DNA of 64,000 nucleotides from NCBI GenBank assembly GCA_964187785.1, contig OZ076409.1:16432001-16496000 (forward strand), written 5' to 3'. The stretch is from Amphiscolops sp. MND2022 (Eukaryota). The notes below the pieces were generated by a model, which saw nothing but the letters and a program-made list of their open reading frames with translations, was not told where the DNA came from and did not search any database. The translations under genes and the position numbers were made by a program. Shown one piece after another: positions 3,230-63,441 of this stretch. Numbering within the stretch: the first letter of the stretch is position 1; every line of letters starts with the position of its first letter.

Positions 3230-4014
3230 TTTTTGTCAGAAATGTGGTTTAACTTCGGTGACAGTTTTGCAAAAGGGGTCAAATTGAAAAGATAGCACAA
3301 AACGGACAACGCCATCAGAAAGAGCGTCCAAAAAAACCCCCATGCTGAAATTTTCGCCGCCATCACTTGAATTTTCATTGAGTTATGTCATTTTTACTAT
3401 TTTCACAAAATGTGGTTTAACTTCGGTGACAGTTTTGCAAAAGGGGTCAAAATGAACAGATAGCAAAAAACGGACAACGGCATTGGAAAGAGGGCCCAAA
3501 ATTACCCCTAAAACGTGTTTTTCACACTCCTGAGTCGACTTTTGATAATACATGGAATTTCATTTTTAAGCTTACTAATTTATGCTTTTCAGCATACATT
3601 TTCGTAATAGAGTCAAAATTTTGCTTTCTCACACTTTTTCTGGAATATTTTTGTTTCATCAGATGTCAATAACTTGAAACGTCGTCTTTTCATGAGAATT
3701 TCTCCTCAAAACAAGTTGTTGGCTGGTAATGGTAAGTCCGTACCGCAGATAGGAGTCTCGCGCTCCAAAAATTGACTCTTTGCTTTTAGCCTAATTGTTG
3801 TGATAAACTTATTAAATAGGTAAGTATTCCAACCCTATTGATAAGTTTTATTTGAAAGCAGACTGCGAAAGTGGTCTGCTGCCCAATTTTTGAACAAGGA
3901 ACAAGCTAGTCTGCACTAACTTAAAAGTTACGCGTATTTTGACCGAGAAAATTTTCGTATCATTGTACGTAATTTTGTTGTTAAGCATATAAAGCTATTG
4001 ATTTTACAATGATC

Positions 4015-35773: not shown

Positions 35774-36558
35774 TTTTTGTCAGAAATGTGGTTTAACTTC
35801 GGTGACAGTTTTGCAAAAGGGGTCAAATTGAAAAGATAGCACAAAACGGACAACGCCATCAGAAAGAGCGTCCAAAAAAACCCCCATGCTGAAATTTTCG
35901 CCGCCATCACTTGAATTTTCATTGAGTTATGTCATTTTTACTATTTTCACAAAATGTGGTTTAACTTCGGTGACAGTTTTGCAAAAGGGGTCAAAATGAA
36001 CAGATAGCAAAAAACGGACAACGGCATTGGAAAGAGGGCCCAAAATTACCCCTAAAACGTGTTTTTCACACTCCTGAGTCGACTTTTGATAATACATGGA
36101 ATTTCATTTTTAAGCTTACTAATTTATGCTTTTCAGCATACATTTTCGTAATAGAGTCAAAATTTTGCTTTCTCACAATTTTTCTGGAATATTTTTGTTT
36201 CATCAGATGTCAATAACTTGAAACGTCGTCTTTTCATGAGAATTTCTCCTCAAAACAAGTTGTTGGCTGGTAATGGTAAGTCCGTACCGCAGATAGGAGT
36301 CTCGCGCTCCAAAAATTGACTCTTTGCTTTTAGCCTAATTGTTGTGATAAACTTATTAAATAGGTAAGTATTCCAACCCTATTGATAAGTTTTATTTGAA
36401 AGCAGACTGCGAAAGTGGTCTGCTGCCCAATTTTTGAACAAGGAACAAGCTAGTCTGCACTAACTTAAAAGTTACGCGTATTTTGACCGAGAAAATTTTC
36501 GTATCATTGTACGTAATTTTGTTGTTAAGCATATAAAGCTATTGATTTTACAATGATC

Positions 36559-36677
36559 GGCTACGACCATACCATGTTGAATGCACCGGTTCTCGTCCGA
36601 TCACCGAAGTTAAACAACATAGGGCCTGGTTAGTACTTGGATGGGAGACCGCTTGGGAACACCAGGTGTTGTAGCCT
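36559..36677 (+). rRNA. 5S rRNA
   Basis: Copy of 399-517. Confidence 0.97.
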
Positions 36678-37264: not shown

Positions 37265-37658
37265 AAGTCCTTTTAATAAGTTTGCTTGTACATCATTCGG
37301 TTAAGCAACCCATAGCTCTGTGCTATCATTCAAACTACCATTTTACAAACCCGTCGTGAAGCACCTAAGAAGCCATTCTTTCCTACGGGGGTCGCTGGCT
37401 AAGGTTTGATCTGCGTGGATATTCTTCCAACCGGCTCGTGTGTGGTCGCGTTAGTAGATCAAGCTGAGAAACCGAGACTGGTGCTTCCCAGCGTATTCGT
37501 GAGGTTGCGCTGAAGCTTTCTTGGCGGTCGGCTGGCAGGAGCCCTCAATAAACTGCCAGTTGTCCCAGCAGAGCTCTTCACAGCTGGCAGTGATAGATGC
37601 TCTGTTTCCCCCTAAAAACAAAACAACTCTTTCCCTTTTATTTCAACTGAACTAAAGA

Positions 37659-38852
37659 ATGGATTACGCAGCAGCAACAAAATCAAGCGAAACAACAGAA
37701 GACTACCTCCCCCCACTTCTGTTTGTACTTCCAATCACTAAAGAAGATTTCAACACTCCGAACGGAATTATTGACATCTTCGTTAAACTCTGTACGACAC
37801 TCTTAGCAAAACTACCATGTGAGGCTAGAACGAAAACGGTCATACAACGAGTAACATACGGATTCAAGAAATTGAAGGCAGTCAAAGTAAACTTGCCAAC
37901 TTCTTGTCAGAACGTACAAAACGAAATGCTCGGCATGGGGCTAGAATGTGGGAACAAAACGGTATGGCCGGTGCGAGACGACCGAACCTACAGATTCTAC
38001 CCGTGCAATGTCAGCATCAAGATTCAAAATGCCCTGCCCAATCTGACCAACGAAGAAATCAAGAACGAACTGAAACTACCCGAAGGCATTACTGCGAACG
38101 ACGACTTGAACTTCAAAACAGTCAGCATTGGGCCGTACATGAAAGTCTTTGATGGAACAGCGACAATCTCTGCCACTGTTCAGTCTGCCGAGCAAATGGA
38201 AGAAATGAAAAACTGGTCGCGCAAAGCTTTCTTTGAAGAAAAACAAGTTAGAAATCAAGTGACTCAGATGTATGCTCCTAACATCATGACATGTACTTTC
38301 TGTGAAAAGAAAGGCTCCTTCTACAGAGGTCATGATGACACTTGGTGCACAAAGAAAACGAAAGAAGAACGCGAACTGAAAAAAAAAGCGAAGGCGATCG
38401 AAGACGAAGGCGACGTCTTCACAGCCGACGAACAAAGTGTACACAACGAACAAATCGCAAAAATTAGAAACGACAGCTGTGCATCAACATCAAGCAGAAA
38501 TAATAAAAGACGACGCAGCACACCAAAGCGCGCCAACTCGGAAAAAAACCCACGACTCAGTGCGAGACAGCGAACCAGCCAAATACCAAAGATGAAAGCA
38601 AAAGCTCAAAATGAGAACAAACCCGAACAAAAAGAAAGTACAAGTCAAACTGCAAACAACAACAGTGATAACAATGACGAGAATGAAGAACAAGATACCA
38701 CAAGCACGAAGAACGCAGATACCGAAAACAGATTGCCGAAACCGCTGAACATGAGAGATTTTGTGGATGCAATGAATCCAATTCATCACATAGAAACAAA
38801 TGAAACAACAAACAACAACGTCAACGAAACAAACAATACGAAGACGAAATGA
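37659..38852 (+). CDS. Retrotransposon ORF1p, putative nucleic-acid-binding/gag-like protein (397 aa)
   Basis: Long ORF directly upstream of the RT ORF; knuckle-like CTFCEKKGSFYRGHDDTWC (C-x2-C-x9-H-x4-C); basic segment and low-complexity N/E/T-rich C-terminus. Confidence 0.85.
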   Translation: MDYAAATKSSETTEDYLPPLLFVLPITKEDFNTPNGIIDIFVKLCTTLLAKLPCEARTKTVIQRVTYGFKKLKAVKVNLPTSCQNVQNEMLGMGLECGNKTVWPVRDDRTYRFYPCNVSIKIQNALPNLTNEEIKNELKLPEGITANDDLNFKTVSIGPYMKVFDGTATISATVQSAEQMEEMKNWSRKAFFEEKQVRNQVTQMYAPNIMTCTFCEKKGSFYRGHDDTWCTKKTKEERELKKKAKAIEDEGDVFTADEQSVHNEQIAKIRNDSCASTSSRNNKRRRSTPKRANSEKNPRLSARQRTSQIPKMKAKAQNENKPEQKESTSQTANNNSDNNDENEEQDTTSTKNADTENRLPKPLNMRDFVDAMNPIHHIETNETTNNNVNETNNTKTK

Positions 38853-41800
38853 CGACGCCCAACATTGTTAGTTTCAATTGTAGGGGTCTTGGCAATCCCT
38901 TGAAACTCACAAGCCTAATTGCAAATACTGACATCAACAATGACGTCATTGCAATTCAAGAAACTAAAATGAAAAAACTAAAGAAAAAACATTTGAAAAT
39001 ACTCGAGTCCTACGACATGAATTACGTAATCAGCCCATGCGACAAATCAAAAGCGGGCGGCCTGCTGCTTTTGTTCAAAGCAAAACATAACGTAGAGTTG
39101 GTTACCCAAAACAAGTCTTTTCAAATTATAAAGATGTCAAACCAAGCCACTGAAACAAAGATGGCCAATGTTTACATATGCCCCAGCTGGAGTATAAGCA
39201 AAATCAATGAAGAACTTGAAGACCTGAAACTCAACTTGGAATCAAAGCATCTCAGGCATATTGAACCATGTGTAATAGTTGGTGACTTGAATTGTTTCGA
39301 TGACGTCACAAGAAACAAACATCCTCAATATGCAAAACACAAAGTTATACTGAAAGCGTTTGAAAAAATGGGCTTGATGGACATGGCAGTGAAGCTTGAG
39401 AATATCGAGAACACACACTTCGCGCCAGCCCAAAAACCATCGCGCCTGGATTATATCTTCTCAAATGTTGTGAGTCAGAAACAAGAAATCAGAACGATCA
39501 AGACATGCTTCTCAGATCACCGAATTTTGCGCCTGTCAAGCAAGCATAAGGCCGAGCAAGGTCAAAAGATCTTTAGAATGGATGACACAACTGTTGATGA
39601 AAACGTCAAAACCCTGAAAACGCTGATTTCACAAACAAATGGCTTGACCGGTGAACAGCTAGCGAATGATGCGTATCTCACAATGAAAAATGAGATTTCC
39701 AACTTTCTAAGACAAGCTAGCATATGGAGAGCAAGAAATAACAAAGACAGACTGCTCAAGGGGCCCGACGCAGAAGCTGAGCAGAATCTTGCAAAAAGAA
39801 TGCTAGCAGCAGTGAAGGTCAAATGCACTGACCTGAATGAAGGAAACTTGAAGATTGTTAAAAAGTACTGCTCTGACAATGCAAACAACCAAAGCAACGC
39901 GATCAAGAAGCTGAAAACACAGAAAGATCGAATTGTCTCAAGTGAGAATGAGATCATAGATGAAGTTACAAAGTACTACAGTAAGCTCTACGCCAACGAA
40001 CCAATTGATGAGAAGAAACAAGAGTGCCTCATCACAAACTTCAAAAAACAGATCTCTGAAGATGAAAGAGAACGTCTAACTCAGCAAATCACCCTAGACG
40101 AGATCAAAAATGCGATTGACAATCTGAACAAAGAAAGCGCGCCAGGCCCAGATGGACTAACCCCAAAACTGTTTCAAACGTTCAAGGAAGAATTCAGTCT
40201 TATGTTTCAAAAGATGTTTGAACATGCTGCAGACGGTAACAACTTACCAATGGCATTCAACCAAGCCTTCATTAGACTACTTCCGAAAAGTGGTGATCTG
40301 ACAACATTGAAGAACTGGAGACCAATAAGCCTGATCAACACTGACAGCAAGATTTTTTCAGCAGTAATTGCAAACCGAATGAAAAGTAGCCTCCGCGAAA
40401 TCATCCACCCAGATCAATGCGCATATTTGAAAGGCAGACAAATGTCAAACGCCACACTGCTACTAAAATCTCTGTGCACAAACAAAAGAATGAAAAAAAC
40501 TTTGACACTAGCTGGACTCGACTTCAGCAAAGCCTTCGACAGGGTAGATCGTTCGTACTTGCTGAAACTTATAAAACATGTGGGATTCCCTCCCAACATA
40601 TACAACATGATAGAGCAACTGTACAAAGATACACGATCTAACGTTCTAGTCAACTCCTTCATCACAAGACGAATACAGCAAGAAAGAGGAGTGAAACAAG
40701 GATGCCCAGTCTCAGCTCTTTTGTTCATCCTAGCTATTGAGCCATTGCTTGAACTACTGAGATCGTCATCGAGCCTGACTGGAATCGCAAAAGGAAAATT
40801 GAAGAAAAAAATCATTGCATATGCTGATGACGTCACAATGTTAGTTGAGAATGAAGAACAACTGAAGCAAGCAATTCAAACAGTTGAAGACTTTGGCAAA
40901 AGCACCCAATTCGCCTTGAACGCTGACAAAACGGAACAGTTTGACCTGAATCGAAGAAATGAAGATCAAAAGATCAAACTCCTCGGTTTGTATTTGTTCA
41001 GCAACCAAAAAAGTGAAAAGCAGCACTACCAGCAACAACTGATCCAAGAAAGCGAAAGAGCAAAGAAAGTGTGTAGACCATCAATGTCGATGAAAACTAA
41101 AAGTTGCGTCATGAAAGCCTTCGTAATGCCAAAAATAGTGTTCCATGCGAAAGCCTCAAACTGTGATCGAGCAACTTGGAAAAAAGTTCAACGAAACCTA
41201 AAACAAGGACTTCACAACAATAGGAGCAATCAGATTTCAGAACGCCTTCTTTTTCAAAGCACCAATGAAGGCGGTGTTGGCTTCCCATGCGTGAAGACCT
41301 ATGCAAGCACTTCTTTTCTGATGGATGTGTGGAGAGCAGTTTTCCACAATGACGATCACTTTATTGCACTCGAAATCAAAGAAGCAGTAGAAGACGAGAA
41401 AAGTTACGTTCACAGCAAACTGAAACAAATGAAAACGATAACGAAAGCGCGAGCGATAACTTTCAAGCGAGAACACATAGAGTTTGTGACAAGTGAAGGA
41501 CTAACAAAAATCCCTGCTACTTCAAAAGCAATATACGCCTTTGCAATCCGCCGACAGCATGCAGACTTCGTAGATGAAAGAATCATGAAAGCGGGATCAA
41601 AACTTCAAACAGCACCCCAACAACTTCTGTACACACTCAAAGCAATTTGGAGAAGCAACAAACTGAACCCTGTTCAACGAGACGTTTTCTATAATTTCAG
41701 TTTCAATCTTTACCGAGACAAAGTATTCCTCCATGCAGCTGGCTACAAGTCTGATGATGACTGTTTCCTTTGCGGAGCAAGTAAACAAACACATGAGCAT

Positions 41801-42016
41801 CTGATCCTAGATTGTCAAAAAACAAAGCAGATTGCTGAAACCCTTGGAATTCGCAGCATGAAAGATCTGTACCAGCAGGCAGAACAAGACACATGGAAAA
41901 AAGTGAGATTCGTAACAACTCTGCTCATATGTTCATGGACCGACAACAAGCAAGAAGTGGAACAAATGATTCACAACTTTCCCATCACTACCAAGCAAGT
42001 TGGCACAGTGGCTTAG
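38849..42016 (+). CDS. Retrotransposon ORF2p: APE-type endonuclease + reverse transcriptase + C-terminal CCHC zinc finger (1055 aa)
   Basis: APE motifs SFNCRGL, IQETK, GDLN, RLDYIF, SDH. RT motifs SAPGPDG, NWRPISL, LDFSKAFDRV, GVKQGCPVS, YADD. EGGVGFP motif and CFLCGASKQTHEHLILDC near the C-terminus, as in L1/Tx1 elements. Confidence 0.97.
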   Translation: MTTPNIVSFNCRGLGNPLKLTSLIANTDINNDVIAIQETKMKKLKKKHLKILESYDMNYVISPCDKSKAGGLLLLFKAKHNVELVTQNKSFQIIKMSNQATETKMANVYICPSWSISKINEELEDLKLNLESKHLRHIEPCVIVGDLNCFDDVTRNKHPQYAKHKVILKAFEKMGLMDMAVKLENIENTHFAPAQKPSRLDYIFSNVVSQKQEIRTIKTCFSDHRILRLSSKHKAEQGQKIFRMDDTTVDENVKTLKTLISQTNGLTGEQLANDAYLTMKNEISNFLRQASIWRARNNKDRLLKGPDAEAEQNLAKRMLAAVKVKCTDLNEGNLKIVKKYCSDNANNQSNAIKKLKTQKDRIVSSENEIIDEVTKYYSKLYANEPIDEKKQECLITNFKKQISEDERERLTQQITLDEIKNAIDNLNKESAPGPDGLTPKLFQTFKEEFSLMFQKMFEHAADGNNLPMAFNQAFIRLLPKSGDLTTLKNWRPISLINTDSKIFSAVIANRMKSSLREIIHPDQCAYLKGRQMSNATLLLKSLCTNKRMKKTLTLAGLDFSKAFDRVDRSYLLKLIKHVGFPPNIYNMIEQLYKDTRSNVLVNSFITRRIQQERGVKQGCPVSALLFILAIEPLLELLRSSSSLTGIAKGKLKKKIIAYADDVTMLVENEEQLKQAIQTVEDFGKSTQFALNADKTEQFDLNRRNEDQKIKLLGLYLFSNQKSEKQHYQQQLIQESERAKKVCRPSMSMKTKSCVMKAFVMPKIVFHAKASNCDRATWKKVQRNLKQGLHNNRSNQISERLLFQSTNEGGVGFPCVKTYASTSFLMDVWRAVFHNDDHFIALEIKEAVEDEKSYVHSKLKQMKTITKARAITFKREHIEFVTSEGLTKIPATSKAIYAFAIRRQHADFVDERIMKAGSKLQTAPQQLLYTLKAIWRSNKLNPVQRDVFYNFSFNLYRDKVFLHAAGYKSDDDCFLCGASKQTHEHLILDCQKTKQIAETLGIRSMKDLYQQAEQDTWKKVRFVTTLLICSWTDNKQEVEQMIHNFPITTKQVGTVA

Positions 42017-42107
42017 CCAAAGACCATGAGTCAAACAAACGAGGTTCGAACCTCTGACGGAACCAAGACACAAACATGAAAAAAACTCTTTTACCTTATT
42101 GTTTGAA

Positions 42108-42186
42108 AGGTAAGTATTCCAACCCTATTGATAAGTTTTATTTGAAAGCAGACTGCGAAAGTGGTCTGCTGCCCAATTTTTGAACA
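42108..42186 (+). pseudogene. Donor and intron part of the interrupted SL RNA gene
   Basis: AG|GTAAGT, stem-loop II and Sm site (42175-42183) are intact downstream of the element. Confidence 0.75.
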
Positions 42187-42304
42187 AGGAACAAGCTAGT
42201 CTGCACTAACTTAAAAGTTACGCGTATTTTGACCGAGAAAATTTTCGTATCATTGTACGTAATTTTGTTGTTAAGCATATAAAGCTATTGATTTTACAAT
42301 GATC

Positions 42305-42423
42305 GGCTACGACCATACCATGTTGAATGCACCGGTTCTCGTCCGATCACCGAAGTTAAACAACATAGGGCCTGGTTAGTACTTGGATGGGAGACCGCTT
42401 GGGAACACCAGGTGTTGTAGCCT
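42305..42423 (+). rRNA. 5S rRNA
   Basis: Copy of 399-517; intact gene of the retrotransposon-bearing unit. Confidence 0.97.
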
Positions 42424-54175: not shown

Positions 54176-54777
54176 TTTTTGTCAGAAATGTGGTTTAACT
54201 TCGGTGACAGTTTTGCAAAAGGGGTCAAATTGAAAAGATAGCACAAAACGGACAACGCCATCAGAAAGAGCGTCCAAAAAAACCCCCATGCTGAAATTTT
54301 CGCCGCCATCACTTGAATTTTCATTGAGTTATGTCATTTTTACTATTTTCACAAAATGTGGTTTAACTTCGGTGACAGTTTTGCAAAAGGGGTCAAAATG
54401 AACAGATAGCAAAAAACGGACAACGGCATTGGAAAGAGGGCCCAAAATTACCCCTAAAACGTGTTTTTCACACTCCTGAGTCGACTTTTGATAATACATG
54501 GAATTTCATTTTTAAGCTTACTAATTTATGCTTTTCAGCATACATTTTCGTAATAGAGTCAAAATTTTGCTTTCTCACAATTTTTCTGGAATATTTTTGT
54601 TTCATCAGATGTCAATAACTTGAAACGTCGTCTTTTCATGAGAATTTCTCCTCAAAACAAGTTGTTGGCTGGTAATGGTAAGTCCGTACCGCAGATAGGA
54701 GTCTCGCGCTCCAAAAATTGACTCTTTGCTTTTAGCCTAATTGTTGTGATAAACTTATTAAATAGGTAAGTATTCCA

Positions 54778-54873
54778 TTTTTGGAGTATATCTTGCCTGT
54801 TTGAGGTGTGAGTCGCAGCAATCATAGGTCCAAAACCAGTAACCAAAAACCAACCTGTACTTACTTGTTTGAA
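54778..54873 (+). mobile_element. 96-bp retro-insertion in SL RNA gene (5'-truncated sister LINE or SINE-like), copy 1
   Basis: Flanked by the 14-bp duplication AGGTAAGTATTCCA (54764-54777 and 54874-54887); ends TTGTTTGAA at the same host base as the full-length element. Confidence 0.85.
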
Positions 54874-55068
54874 AGGTAAGTATTCCAACCCTATTGATAA
54901 GTTTTATTTGAAAGCAGACTGCGAAAGGTCTGCTGCCCAATTTTTGAACAAGGAACAAGCTAGTCTGCACTAACTTAAAAGTTACGCGTATTTTGACCGA
55001 GAAAATTTTCGTATCATTGTACGTAATTTTGTTGTTAAGCATATAAAGCTATTGATTTTACAATGATC

Positions 55069-56091: not shown

Positions 56092-56693
56092 TTTTTGTCA
56101 GAAATGTGGTTTAACTTCGGTGACAGTTTTGCAAAAGGGGTCAAATTGAAAAGATAGCACAAAACGGACAACGCCATCAGAAAGAGTGTCCAAAAAAACC
56201 CCCATGCTGAAATTTTCGCCGCCATCACTTGAATTTTCATTGAGTTATGTCATTTTTACTATTTTCACAAAATGTGGTTTAACTTCGGTGACAGTTTTGC
56301 AAAAGGGGTCAAAATGAACAGATAGCAAAAAACGGACAACGGCATTGGAAAGAGGGCCCAAAATTACCCCTAAAACGTGTTTTTCACACTCCTGAGTCGA
56401 CTTTTGATAATACATGGAATTTCATTTTTAAGCTTACTAATTTATGCTTTTCAGCATACATTTTCGTAATAGAGTCAAAATTTTGCTTTCTCACAATTTT
56501 TCTGGAATATTTTTGTTTCATCAGATGTCAATAACTTGAAACGTCGTCTTTTCATGAGAATTTCTCCTCAAAACAAGTTGTTGGCTGGTAATGGTAAGTC
56601 CGTACCGCAGATAGGAGTCTCGCGCTCCAAAAATTGACTCTTTGCTTTTAGCCTAATTGTTGTGATAAACTTATTAAATAGGTAAGTATTCCA

Positions 56694-56789
56694 TTTTTGG
56701 AGTATATCTTGCCTGTTTGAGGTGTGAGTCGCAGCAATCATAGGTCCAAAACCAGTAACCAAAAACCAACCTGTACTTACTTGTTTGAA
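56694..56789 (+). mobile_element. 96-bp retro-insertion in SL RNA gene, copy 2
   Basis: Same sequence and 14-bp duplication as copy 1. Confidence 0.85.
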
Positions 56790-57103: not shown

Positions 57104-57705
57104 TTTTTGTCAGAAATGTGGTTTAACTTCGGTGACAGTTTTGCAAAAGGGGTCAAATTGAAAAGATAGCACAAAACGGACAACGCCATCAGAAAGAGCG
57201 TCCAAAAAAACCCCCATGCTGAAATTTTCGCCGCCATCACTTGAATTTTCATTGAGTTATGTCATTTTTACTATTTTCACAAAATGTGGTTTAACTTCGG
57301 TGACAGTTTTGCAAAAGGGGTCAAAATGAACAGATAGCAAAAAACGGACAACGGCATTGGAAAGAGGGCCCAAAATTACCCCTAAAACGTGTTTTTCACA
57401 CTCCTGAGTCGACTTTTGATAATACATGGAATTTCATTTTTAAGCTTACTAATTTATGCTTTTCAGCATACATTTTCGTAATAGAGTCAAAATTTTGCTT
57501 TCTCACAATTTTTCTGGAATATTTTTGTTTCATCAGATGTCAATAACTTGAAACGTCGTCTTTTCATGAGAATTTCTCCTCAAAACAAGTTGTTGGCTGG
57601 TAATGGTAAGTCCGTACCGCAGATAGGAGTCTCGCGCTCCAAAAATTGACTCTTTGCTTTTAGCCTAATTGTTGTGATAAACTTATTAAATAGGTAAGTA
57701 TTCCA

Positions 57706-57801
57706 TTTTTGGAGTATATCTTGCCTGTTTGAGGTGTGAGTCGCAGCAATCATAGGTCCAAAACCAGTAACCAAAAACCAACCTGTACTTACTTGTTTGA
57801 A
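57706..57801 (+). mobile_element. 96-bp retro-insertion in SL RNA gene, copy 3
   Basis: Same sequence and 14-bp duplication as copy 1. Confidence 0.85.
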
Positions 57802-59019: not shown

Positions 59020-59621
59020 TTTTTGTCAGAAATGTGGTTTAACTTCGGTGACAGTTTTGCAAAAGGGGTCAAATTGAAAAGATAGCACAAAACGGACAAC
59101 GCCATCAGAAAGAGCGTCCAAAAAAACCCCCATGCTGAAATTTTCGCCGCCATCACTTGAATTTTCATTGAGTTATGTCATTTTTACTATTTTCACAAAA
59201 TGTGGTTTAACTTCGGTGACAGTTTTGCAAAAGGGGTCAAAATGAACAGATAGCAAAAAACGGACAACGGCATTGGAAAGAGGGCCCAAAATTACCCCTA
59301 AAACGTGTTTTTCACACTCCTGAGTCGACTTTTGATAATACATGGAATTTCATTTTTAAGCTTACTAATTTATGCTTTTCAGCATACATTTTCGTAATAG
59401 AGTCAAAATTTTGCTTTCTCACAATTTTTCTGGAATATTTTTGTTTCATCAGATGTCAATAACTTGAAACGTCGTCTTTTCATGAGAATTTCTCCTCAAA
59501 ACAAGTTGTTGGCTGGTAATGGTAAGTCCGTACCGCAGATAGGAGTCTCGCGCTCCAAAAATTGACTCTTTGCTTTTAGCCTAATTGTTGTGATAAACTT
59601 ATTAAATAGGTAAGTATTCCA

Positions 59622-59717
59622 TTTTTGGAGTATATCTTGCCTGTTTGAGGTGTGAGTCGCAGCAATCATAGGTCCAAAACCAGTAACCAAAAACCAACCT
59701 GTACTTACTTGTTTGAA
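59622..59717 (+). mobile_element. 96-bp retro-insertion in SL RNA gene, copy 4
   Basis: Same sequence and 14-bp duplication as copy 1. Confidence 0.85.
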
Positions 59718-62743: not shown

Positions 62744-63345
62744 TTTTTGTCAGAAATGTGGTTTAACTTCGGTGACAGTTTTGCAAAAGGGGTCAAATTG
62801 AAAAGATAGCACAAAACGGACAACGCCATCAGAAAGAGCGTCCAAAAAAACCCCCATGCTGAAATTTTCGCCGCCATCACTTGAATTTTCATTGAGTTAT
62901 GTCATTTTTACTATTTTCACAAAATGTGGTTTAACTTCGGTGACAGTTTTGCAAAAGGGGTCAAAATGAACAGATAGCAAAAAACGGACAACGGCATTGG
63001 AAAGAGGGCCCAAAATTACCCCTAAAACGTGTTTTTCACACTCCTGAGTCGACTTTTGATAATACATGGAATTTCATTTTTAAGCTTACTAATTTATGCT
63101 TTTCAGCATACATTTTCGTAATAGAGTCAAAATTTTGCTTTCTCACAATTTTTCTGGAATATTTTTGTTTCATCAGATGTCAATAACTTGAAACGTCGTC
63201 TTTTCATGAGAATTTCTCCTCAAAACAAGTTGTTGGCTGGTAATGGTAAGTCCGTACCGCAGATAGGAGTCTCGCGCTCCAAAAATTGACTCTTTGCTTT
63301 TAGCCTAATTGTTGTGATAAACTTATTAAATAGGTAAGTATTCCA

Positions 63346-63441
63346 TTTTTGGAGTATATCTTGCCTGTTTGAGGTGTGAGTCGCAGCAATCATAGGTCCA
63401 AAACCAGTAACCAAAAACCAACCTGTACTTACTTGTTTGAA
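63346..63441 (+). mobile_element. 96-bp retro-insertion in SL RNA gene, copy 5 (no linked 2-bp deletion)
   Basis: Same insert and duplication; downstream stem-loop II is wild type. Confidence 0.85.

Follow-up and report, generated by a model that had tools for sequence, protein, structure and literature searches.

An L1-group retrotransposon with an APE-type endonuclease inserted at one position of an acoel's genes for spliced-leader RNA

Retrotransposons without long terminal repeats (non-LTR) that insert site-specifically into the exons of spliced-leader (SL) RNA genes are represented by NeSL-1 of Caenorhabditis and by CRE, SLACS and CZAR of trypanosomatids (PMC3636483, PMC4640811). As described in the accessible passages of PMC3636483, these elements belong to the R2 group and carry a PD-(D/E)xK restriction-like endonuclease (RLE) behind the reverse transcriptase (RT), and NeSL deletes target bases. 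In the passages of PMC3636483 and PMC4640811 on target choice, SL targeting is assigned to CRE and NeSL, both with an RLE, and targeting based on an apurinic/apyrimidinic endonuclease (APE) to the Tx1 and R1 clades. Here we describe a long interspersed nuclear element (LINE) from the acoel Amphiscolops sp. MND2022, located at 37265-42107 of a 64,000-nt stretch (the window) of contig OZ076409.1 (positions 16,432,001 to 16,496,000). Unlike the systems above, this intact element has two open reading frames (ORFs) with an N-terminal APE, in an L1-group architecture, and it either duplicates 12-20 bp of its target or joins it seamlessly. It lies in sense orientation within an SL RNA gene and, judging from the DNA, is likely an active, sequence-specific LINE that lives only in such genes.

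The window is a tandem array containing 65 full-length 5S rRNA genes, as established by Rfam and unit comparison. Among its 64 complete units, 58 are 904 bp long, five carry a short insert and one carries the LINE. Tandem Repeats Finder reported no repeat in the window, the period of the array being above 500. The exon of the array is identical over 31 nt to the trans-spliced leader of the acoel Symsagittifera roscoffensis, which was taken from transcript 5' ends in a species with 30.2% of genes trans-spliced, according to the accessible parts of PMC9911081 and its preprint. The supplement text of PMC9911081 mentions no Tx1 or LINE family, tables stored as pictures being outside such a search. 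In the genome, 663 copies of the 3' part of the leader end at the donor position without a G as the next base, against none for the reversed control; these at least 663 dispersed leaders joined to unrelated sequence are probably retrocopied trans-spliced mRNAs. Behind the exon lie a GT donor and two stem-loops (fold z -4.9 for 36345-36440), followed by what we take, from established knowledge of SL RNAs, to be an Sm-type site. The insertion target is an SL RNA gene, because its exon matches the published leader, with the dispersed leader copies as independent support; no SL model of Rfam matches it. The SL/5S arrays of contigs C1, C12 and C13 form subtypes that are 92-97% alike, and within every unit the spacer behind the 5S gene contains an internal duplication of some 100 bp.

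The genome search with the last 308 bp of the LINE gave 36 matches of 99-100% identity on C1, C12, C13 and five small contigs. Only the best candidates were scored in the genome searches, so copy counts are lower bounds. All 36 3' ends pass into the same SL flank, with the break between exon nt 30 and 31; in the window it falls at 42107/42108, leaving 2 nt ahead of the donor GT at 42110. The 19-mer spanning this junction occurs 82 times in the genome (36 in LINE copies, the others attributed to short elements) and never in the reversed control. A flank shared by 36 of 36 copies in a genome of 1.07 Gb, together with the count of 82 against 0, is far beyond chance. Set against the 1146 intact SL exon-intron junctions of the genome, all carrying T at exon nt 30 (T30), about 3% of the SL genes hold the LINE and about 7% hold some donor-site insert (82 vs 1146). 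The ORF2 frame is full length in 29 of the 36 copies. No copy of the family was found in U2, the target of Keno, where a sister family is present, and none in 5S, where all 65 genes of the window are whole.

These results bear out much of the initial annotation of the window, which had described a LINE of the same coordinates and orientation with unbroken APE, RT and CCHC domains, in a unit of 904 bp, with its 3' junction 2 nt upstream of a putative SL donor. The ORF, Pfam and motif checks agree with that description, and the putative donor is supported by the leader match, the GT, the stem-loops and the Sm-type site. The prediction that nearly all genomic copies would be followed by SL sequence held for every copy. 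Mutsu targets 5S genes and Dewa, as the annotation also stated, tRNA arrays; its statement that the LINE is not Mutsu-like is upheld, with all 36 insertions in the SL gene and the 5S genes untouched.

The 5' ends of 37 LINE copies were resolved, including one near a contig end without a matched 3' end (L038). Fifteen are seamless, with the promoter and exon nt 1-29 running directly into the element. Twelve are truncated at element nt 29, 114, 260, 317, 353, 420, 697, 721, 1749, 1927, 2982 and 3685, each behind a target duplication, as is expected of presumed target-primed reverse transcription. In eight copies the SL head is a separate piece (five behind a duplication, three behind a deletion or inversion), and the last two (L041, L048) begin without a head at the first base of the element, behind a duplication. 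Target duplications were found at 19 junctions, with lengths of 12-20 bp, mostly 17-18, and frequent microhomology or short filler; the window copy has none. The last 1 kb of the LINE in 29 other copies is 99.3-99.9% identical to that of the window copy. Flank identity is 99.1% for three copies on C1, whereas 25 located on other contigs reach 95.6-97.0%, with L026, whose LINE precedes a second insert, left out of the comparison. As the copies are far more alike than their flanks across contigs, the LINE moved after the arrays had diverged.

Five of the eight separate SL heads begin at the exon +1 A and none has more than two upstream bases, which points to the SL start site as the most likely beginning of the RNA. 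All 23 head-bearing copies have A at exon nt 30 (A30), against T in the SL genes. This A is followed by AG without the donor GT, and then by an arm that pairs with the exon and mimics SL stem-loop I. Since fresh trans-splicing would give T30, the head with A30 is encoded by the element. The 18-mer with A30 occurs 38 times in the genome, 22 times in element heads and 16 times elsewhere; on inspection, the latter are 15 leader-capped dispersed sequences and one orphan SL gene. Among dispersed leaders lacking the following G, 12 have A30 and 663 have T30, and A30 was accordingly rejected as a major leader variant.

The coordinates of the features are given in the table. ORF1 and ORF2 are unbroken and overlap in ATGA. 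In ORF2, Pfam detected Exo_endo_phos (E 3.7e-11) and RVT_1 (E 5e-38), with zf-RVT below the cutoff. All APE motifs (N10, E38, Y109, D146/N148, D201 and D223/H224) are kept, and the YADD and CX2CX8HX4C motifs are intact. No RLE family matched in ORF2, which stops 66 aa past the CCHC motif. The best solved relative is human L1 ORF2p (E 2e-60), with R2 at 8e-31. ORF1 gave no Pfam family and, by sequence, no credible solved relative. Folded as a single sequence, it reached a predicted local distance difference test score (pLDDT) of only 35, and a usable model needed an alignment of 18 rows (pLDDT 88.6). This model predicts two folds of the RNA recognition motif (RRM) type and a long zinc knuckle, and it resembles tandem-RRM structures (best Z 8.2, root-mean-square deviation 2.4, 79 aligned). 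An atlas lead to RNA-binding domains of the ZCCHC3 type was moderately strong at most. The knuckle is invariant in 18 of 18 aligned ORF1 proteins, with a spacing longer than CX2CX4HX4C. ORF1 of the Tx1 clade carries an RRM and a zinc knuckle, which the acoel ORF1 matches apart from the longer knuckle spacing.

Table. Positions of the LINE, its target and neighbouring features in the window.
Position	Strand	Feature	Remark
36332-36363	+	Intact 32-nt SL exon of the unit upstream of the LINE (reference target)	Matches S. roscoffensis leader; donor GT at 36364
36364-36440	+	SL intron: stem-loop I partner, stem-loop II, Sm-type site 36429-36437	
36559-36677	+	5S rRNA gene, uninterrupted, upstream of the LINE	Rfam RF00001, 117.5 bits
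37236-37264	+	SL exon nt 1-29 joined to the host promoter; presumably also the 5' head of the element RNA	
37265-37283	+	LINE start: exon nt 30 A for T, donor GT missing, arm pairing back with the exon	Fold z -3.6
37265-37658	+	5' untranslated region (UTR)	
37659-38852	+	ORF1, 397 aa: two predicted RRM-fold domains (about aa 17-110 and 115-210), CX2CX9HX4C knuckle 38292-38348, low-complexity tail	
38849-42016	+	ORF2, 1055 aa: APE endonuclease 38867-39526, RT 40283-40990, CCHC 41762-41815	
42017-42107	+	3' UTR, 91 nt, without poly(A); 42090-42097 complementary to the following donor region	
42108-42190	+	Remaining target: exon nt 31-32, donor GT 42110, whole SL intron, Sm-type site 42175-42183	
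42305-42423	+	5S rRNA gene, uninterrupted, downstream of the LINE	Rfam
54777-54873	+	97-bp non-autonomous element, copy 1	13-bp duplication 54764-54776 / 54874-54886
56693-56789	+	97-bp element, copy 2	
57705-57801	+	97-bp element, copy 3	
59621-59717	+	97-bp element, copy 4	
63345-63441	+	97-bp element, copy 5	

The five short inserts of the window are copies of a non-autonomous element with the same 3' junction as the LINE. The initial annotation had noted a second element at this base; the junction was identical as stated, and the size is 97 bp instead of the 96 bp given there. A genome search scored 40 matches among 48 candidates. The LINE 3' junction is present in 29 of the 30 loci fetched, the remaining one (L079, 77%) lying elsewhere. 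There are two subfamilies, of 96-97 bp and 109-113 bp, and one 5'-truncated copy, with target duplications of 13-19 bp (13, 16, 17 and 18-19). One short copy is nested directly behind a LINE (L026/L078), and since an occupied site was thus hit again, the bases upstream of the cut can change. The 5' half of the element copies the SL exon and donor in antisense and forms a fold-back with them (z -6.1); its alignment score was reached by 1 and 0 of 500 shuffles in the two subfamilies. In this antisense arm, A-to-G changes make up 7 of the 11 substitutions of subfamily A and 4 of the 10 of subfamily B. Pairing is kept in the form of G-U, and the bias could be explained by RNA editing as well as by selection on the RNA fold. 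A 2-nt deletion in SL stem-loop II follows four of the five window copies (units 54057, 55973, 56985 and 58901), which suggests local spread of one disabled unit.

Both the LINE and the short elements end in a segment that is complementary to the restored donor and resembles the 5' arm of the U1 of this genome. The duplexes of the three donor-site ends with the target have energies of -7.8 kcal/mol for the LINE and -10.6 and -9.4 kcal/mol for the short elements, and 12 and 54 of 1000 shuffles were as stable as the latter two. In 12 sister-family ends the values are -0.2 to -5.8 kcal/mol, with 146-985 of 1000 shuffles as good. Pairing of the 3' end with the donor region is suggestive at the level of predicted duplexes.

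We propose the following mechanism. The ORF2 protein very likely nicks the bottom strand at the site, which is a T/A step, and cuts the top strand some 17 bp further downstream; its recognition would lie mainly 3' of the nick, as a LINE-occupied site was hit again. Full-length copies would be promoterless and read from the host SL promoter, giving an RNA headed by SL exon nt 1-29, and this head probably pairs with the upstream target, so that seamless joins keep the copy under the promoter. The RNA may well read through into the SL intron, and pairing of the read-through with the nicked strand, which we favour by a small margin over its absence, would fix the 3' junction without poly(A). With slightly less than even chances, both splice donors of the RNA are disarmed, the upstream one by deletion and the downstream one by pairing with the 3' UTR, and the LINE RNA would be spared trans-splicing. 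The short element would ride the same machinery. More speculatively, an SL-like cap and import into the nucleus could be conferred on the RNA by the Sm site behind the LINE.

A common 3' junction could also arise from one or a few chance insertions that spread as the SL/5S arrays underwent unequal crossing-over, gene conversion or duplication in the assembly. The arrays are indeed highly homogenised, 15 of the 37 LINE copies share one seamless 5' junction, and the five short copies of the window share another, four of them with the linked 2-nt deletion. Nevertheless, the other 22 LINE 5' junctions are mutually different, 19 of them with duplications, and the 12 truncations range from nt 29 to nt 3685 against a single 3' base throughout, which argues for independent insertions and not for array copying. 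Together with an element far more alike than its flanks between chromosomes, this makes array multiplication extremely improbable, and it is refuted for the LINE. It may yet apply to the short element where copies form local runs, because the one common junction of the five window copies may reflect one event spread along the array. Another explanation would give the LINE an internal promoter of its own and derive the SL head from trans-splicing, as in other leader-capped retrocopies. The head is the full 32-nt exon with one change, ending in AG, and the genome holds at least 663 dispersed leaders, some leaders elsewhere also having A30. The 1146 intact SL junctions with T30, against 23 of 23 heads with A30, make this account improbable for the present element; a one-time ancient trans-splicing origin of the head may be envisaged.

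For the short element, a local fold-back rearrangement of the SL gene, without any retroposed partner, would account for the inverted copy of the exon and donor in its 5' half, and only about eight terminal bases are common to it and the LINE. Duplications of several lengths, the truncated copy, the two subfamilies, the copy nested behind a LINE and the exact LINE junction in 29 of 30 loci do not fit such an origin, which is quite unlikely. The main alternative is that the targeting is real with a precision that comes mainly from RNA pairing, through the SL head, the read-through tail and the antisense segments, on a loosely specific endonuclease that prefers T/A. In accordance with this, a T run precedes the cut at most sister-family sites, the RNA ends are complementary to the target, and several sister families have dispersed copies followed by just 4-5 target bases. 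On the other hand, the dispersed copies still keep the first target bases, and families in the same array use sites 30 nt apart, which fits protein recognition. Moreover, according to the accessible parts of PMC4640811 and PMC8869645, cleavage of the respective target by the APE domain is reported for R1Bm and Tx1L. We consider precision by pairing rather unlikely and prefer recognition by the ORF2 protein.

Several observations weigh against an active LINE confined to SL genes by its own endonuclease. Five further 5'-end matches on C5 (loci L162-L164) belong to decayed, rearranged relatives of 70-90% identity; one of them keeps an SL-like flank at its 5' end, and none yielded a 3' junction. 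Old dispersed copies may have been missed by a genome search of best candidates. The 15 seamless copies are not separable as independent events, and two copies lack the head. The occurrence of A30 leaders elsewhere means that the head could descend from an old trans-splicing event. The 3'-end pairing is weak for the LINE, where 74 of 1000 shuffles were as stable. The whole account is drawn from genomic data. Locus L164 on C5 also contains a repeat of about 565 bp with the SL promoter region and exon start.

The phylogenetic analysis of the RT was performed with FastTree on 196 rows and with IQ-TREE in quick mode on 66 rows, without labelled CR1, RTE, I or R2 outgroups, so the root is not fixed. 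Reference elements were named by their flanks and not by Repbase names, those in U2 (L261, L262) and 5S (L263, L264) on contigs of other animals serving as stand-ins for Keno and Mutsu. All families of this genome and about 20 database proteins of unknown host form one clade, with a support of 100 in the Shimodaira-Hasegawa-like approximate likelihood ratio test (SH-aLRT) and a branch of 0.55. This clade lies outside vertebrate L1 and outside a clade of 31 rows (SH-aLRT 98) that holds the U2-site and 5S-site references; the best RT matches are L1-like, and the deep order is not settled in the trees. ORF1 is homologous across the whole lineage. By its predicted proteins the LINE is best assigned to the L1 group as a separate lineage, which is a safer label than 'Tx1-like'; of the initial 'L1/Tx1-like', the L1 part stood and the Tx1 part proved loose. 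The donor-site family branches apart from families inserted at SL exon +1, and these group with a family at nt 19 of U2. A single clade of all SL-targeting rows was rejected by the approximately unbiased test (p 0.003; 18 rows, without those whose target is unknown). The nearest outside relatives of the donor-site family yielded no target, P0002 and P0121 having no sequence context and L179 and L182 no SL or Rfam match behind ORF2.

The RT search of the genome gave 146 scored matches; besides the 36 that belong to this family, there are 110 others with 29-45% identity. Forty of the latter were fetched, 26 of them chosen for lying in array regions, which is a biased choice. Every one of these 26 ends at SL exon +1; the duplications measure about 12-20 bp, and eight RT families are represented. 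Because of the biased choice, a 3'-end search was made with one +1 family, in which 19 of 20 matches end at SL +1; the twentieth is partial and lies in L141, itself at +1. The +1 families number at least eight on the C1, C12 and C13 arrays (L121-L146, L272-L291) and are often in tandem, and two more are known only by ORF1 and the 5' junction (behind L121 and L124). In other +1 families, three dispersed copies retain no more than the initial 4-5 bases of their target.

Based on Rfam and junctions, other sister families among the remaining 14 fetched loci are inserted in small nuclear RNA (snRNA) genes: U1 (L152, L153) and U2 near nt 19 (L149, L150). U5 holds L151, and L148 is placed there by sequence likeness only. 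An internal U2 site is occupied by L147 and L161; it is the same site as in reference elements L197, L261 and L262, and presumably that of Keno. The specificity is looser in these families, as six of eight ends of the U2 family continue into U2 and five older copies of the U1 family keep only about 5 target bases. L155-L157 and L159 end in A runs with unrelated flanks, and the nesting of such A-rich-tailed families among targeted ones is an apparent loss of specificity. The targeted snRNA families (L147-L153, L161, L292-L313) end in a TTT-N-AA-like sequence and not in poly(A).

The SL-targeting family proposed in the initial annotation as undescribed thus stands as a case of SL targeting by an APE-type element, and it is not isolated, being one branch of a radiation over spliceosomal RNA genes. 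No APE-type SL-targeting element and no target-specific LINE of acoels was found in the literature searched (titles and abstract starts); most subscription journals and Repbase were outside its scope, and a deposited family is possible. As far as these searches reach, this is the first APE-type SL-targeting element. The accessible parts of PMC8869645, PMC5035012 and PMC3747384 contain nothing contrary.

The LINE works like NeSL and SLACS without being a member of their group, and it is built like Tx1, membership of which is unproven. The Tx1 clade, with Keno in U2, families on U5 and 5S, Kibi, Koshi and Tx1L, likewise consists of APE-type, L1-group elements with multicopy RNA gene targets (PMC4640811, PMC4494074). 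A figure legend in PMC4494074 lists U2, U5, 5S, satellites, microsatellites and transposons as Tx1 targets, without SL, and no SL target is named in the accessible passages of PMC4640811 and PMC4494074. Unlike the U2 and 5S references, which end in poly(A), the targeted families of the acoel lineage do not, and the RT of the acoel LINE lies outside their clade. Vertebrate L1 is the best solved relative, also with two ORFs and the order APE-RT-CCHC, and differs from the LINE in that the latter has no poly(A), a strict target, an ORF1 with two RRMs and a knuckle, and a separate clade. R2 of the 28S ribosomal DNA joins its 5' end seamlessly through target-derived RNA; its endonuclease, polymerase system and target differ, and the RT likeness is distant. 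Co-transcription from the host gene is what R2 would share with the LINE (PMC4494074, PMC3636483). The short element resembles the crocodilian SINEU and Tx1-Mar, which are also short and non-autonomous, contain sequence derived from snRNA, with U1/U2 heads in some Tx1-Mar, and share the target of an APE-type LINE (PMC4494074). In SINEU, however, the snRNA head is in sense orientation, poly(A) is present and a Mariner is preferred, according to the passages of PMC4494074, whereas the acoel element contains an antisense SL copy and lies inside the SL gene.

Tentatively, these results may be combined in a broader picture, in which an undescribed L1-group lineage of acoels radiated over RNA polymerase II small-RNA genes of splicing and reached the SL genes at least twice, at the donor and at +1, independently of NeSL and CRE. 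The donor-site family would capture the SL promoter, its RNA having a leader-capped front, SL RNA with the Sm site behind and its donors removed or masked, and the short partner would hide the donor in a fold-back hairpin rich in A-to-G changes. If true, this would be a third independent arrival of retrotransposons at SL genes and, as far as the searches reach, the first with an APE endonuclease, and SL arrays would be a repeatedly found safe haven. With about 7% of the SL genes holding a donor-site insert, the elements may tax a gene that serves about 30% of host genes. Moreover, one genome contains over a dozen related ORF2 proteins, most of them intact, that differ in their exact targets, along with unspecific poly(A) relatives. 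This natural panel bears on how APE-type LINEs gain or switch specificity, and also on tools for site-specific gene insertion.

The pattern is not peculiar to one assembly, because in metagenome contig L183 the same SL exon has an insertion at +1. Metagenome contigs L180, L181 and L183 hold members of this lineage beside U2, U5 and the SL exon. In L180 a junction at U2 nt 6 lies 0.9 kb behind its ORF and may stem from a different element. Contigs assigned to bacterial genomes (L261-L271) carry animal LINEs in U2, 5S and U5 arrays, a eukaryotic contamination of these bins.

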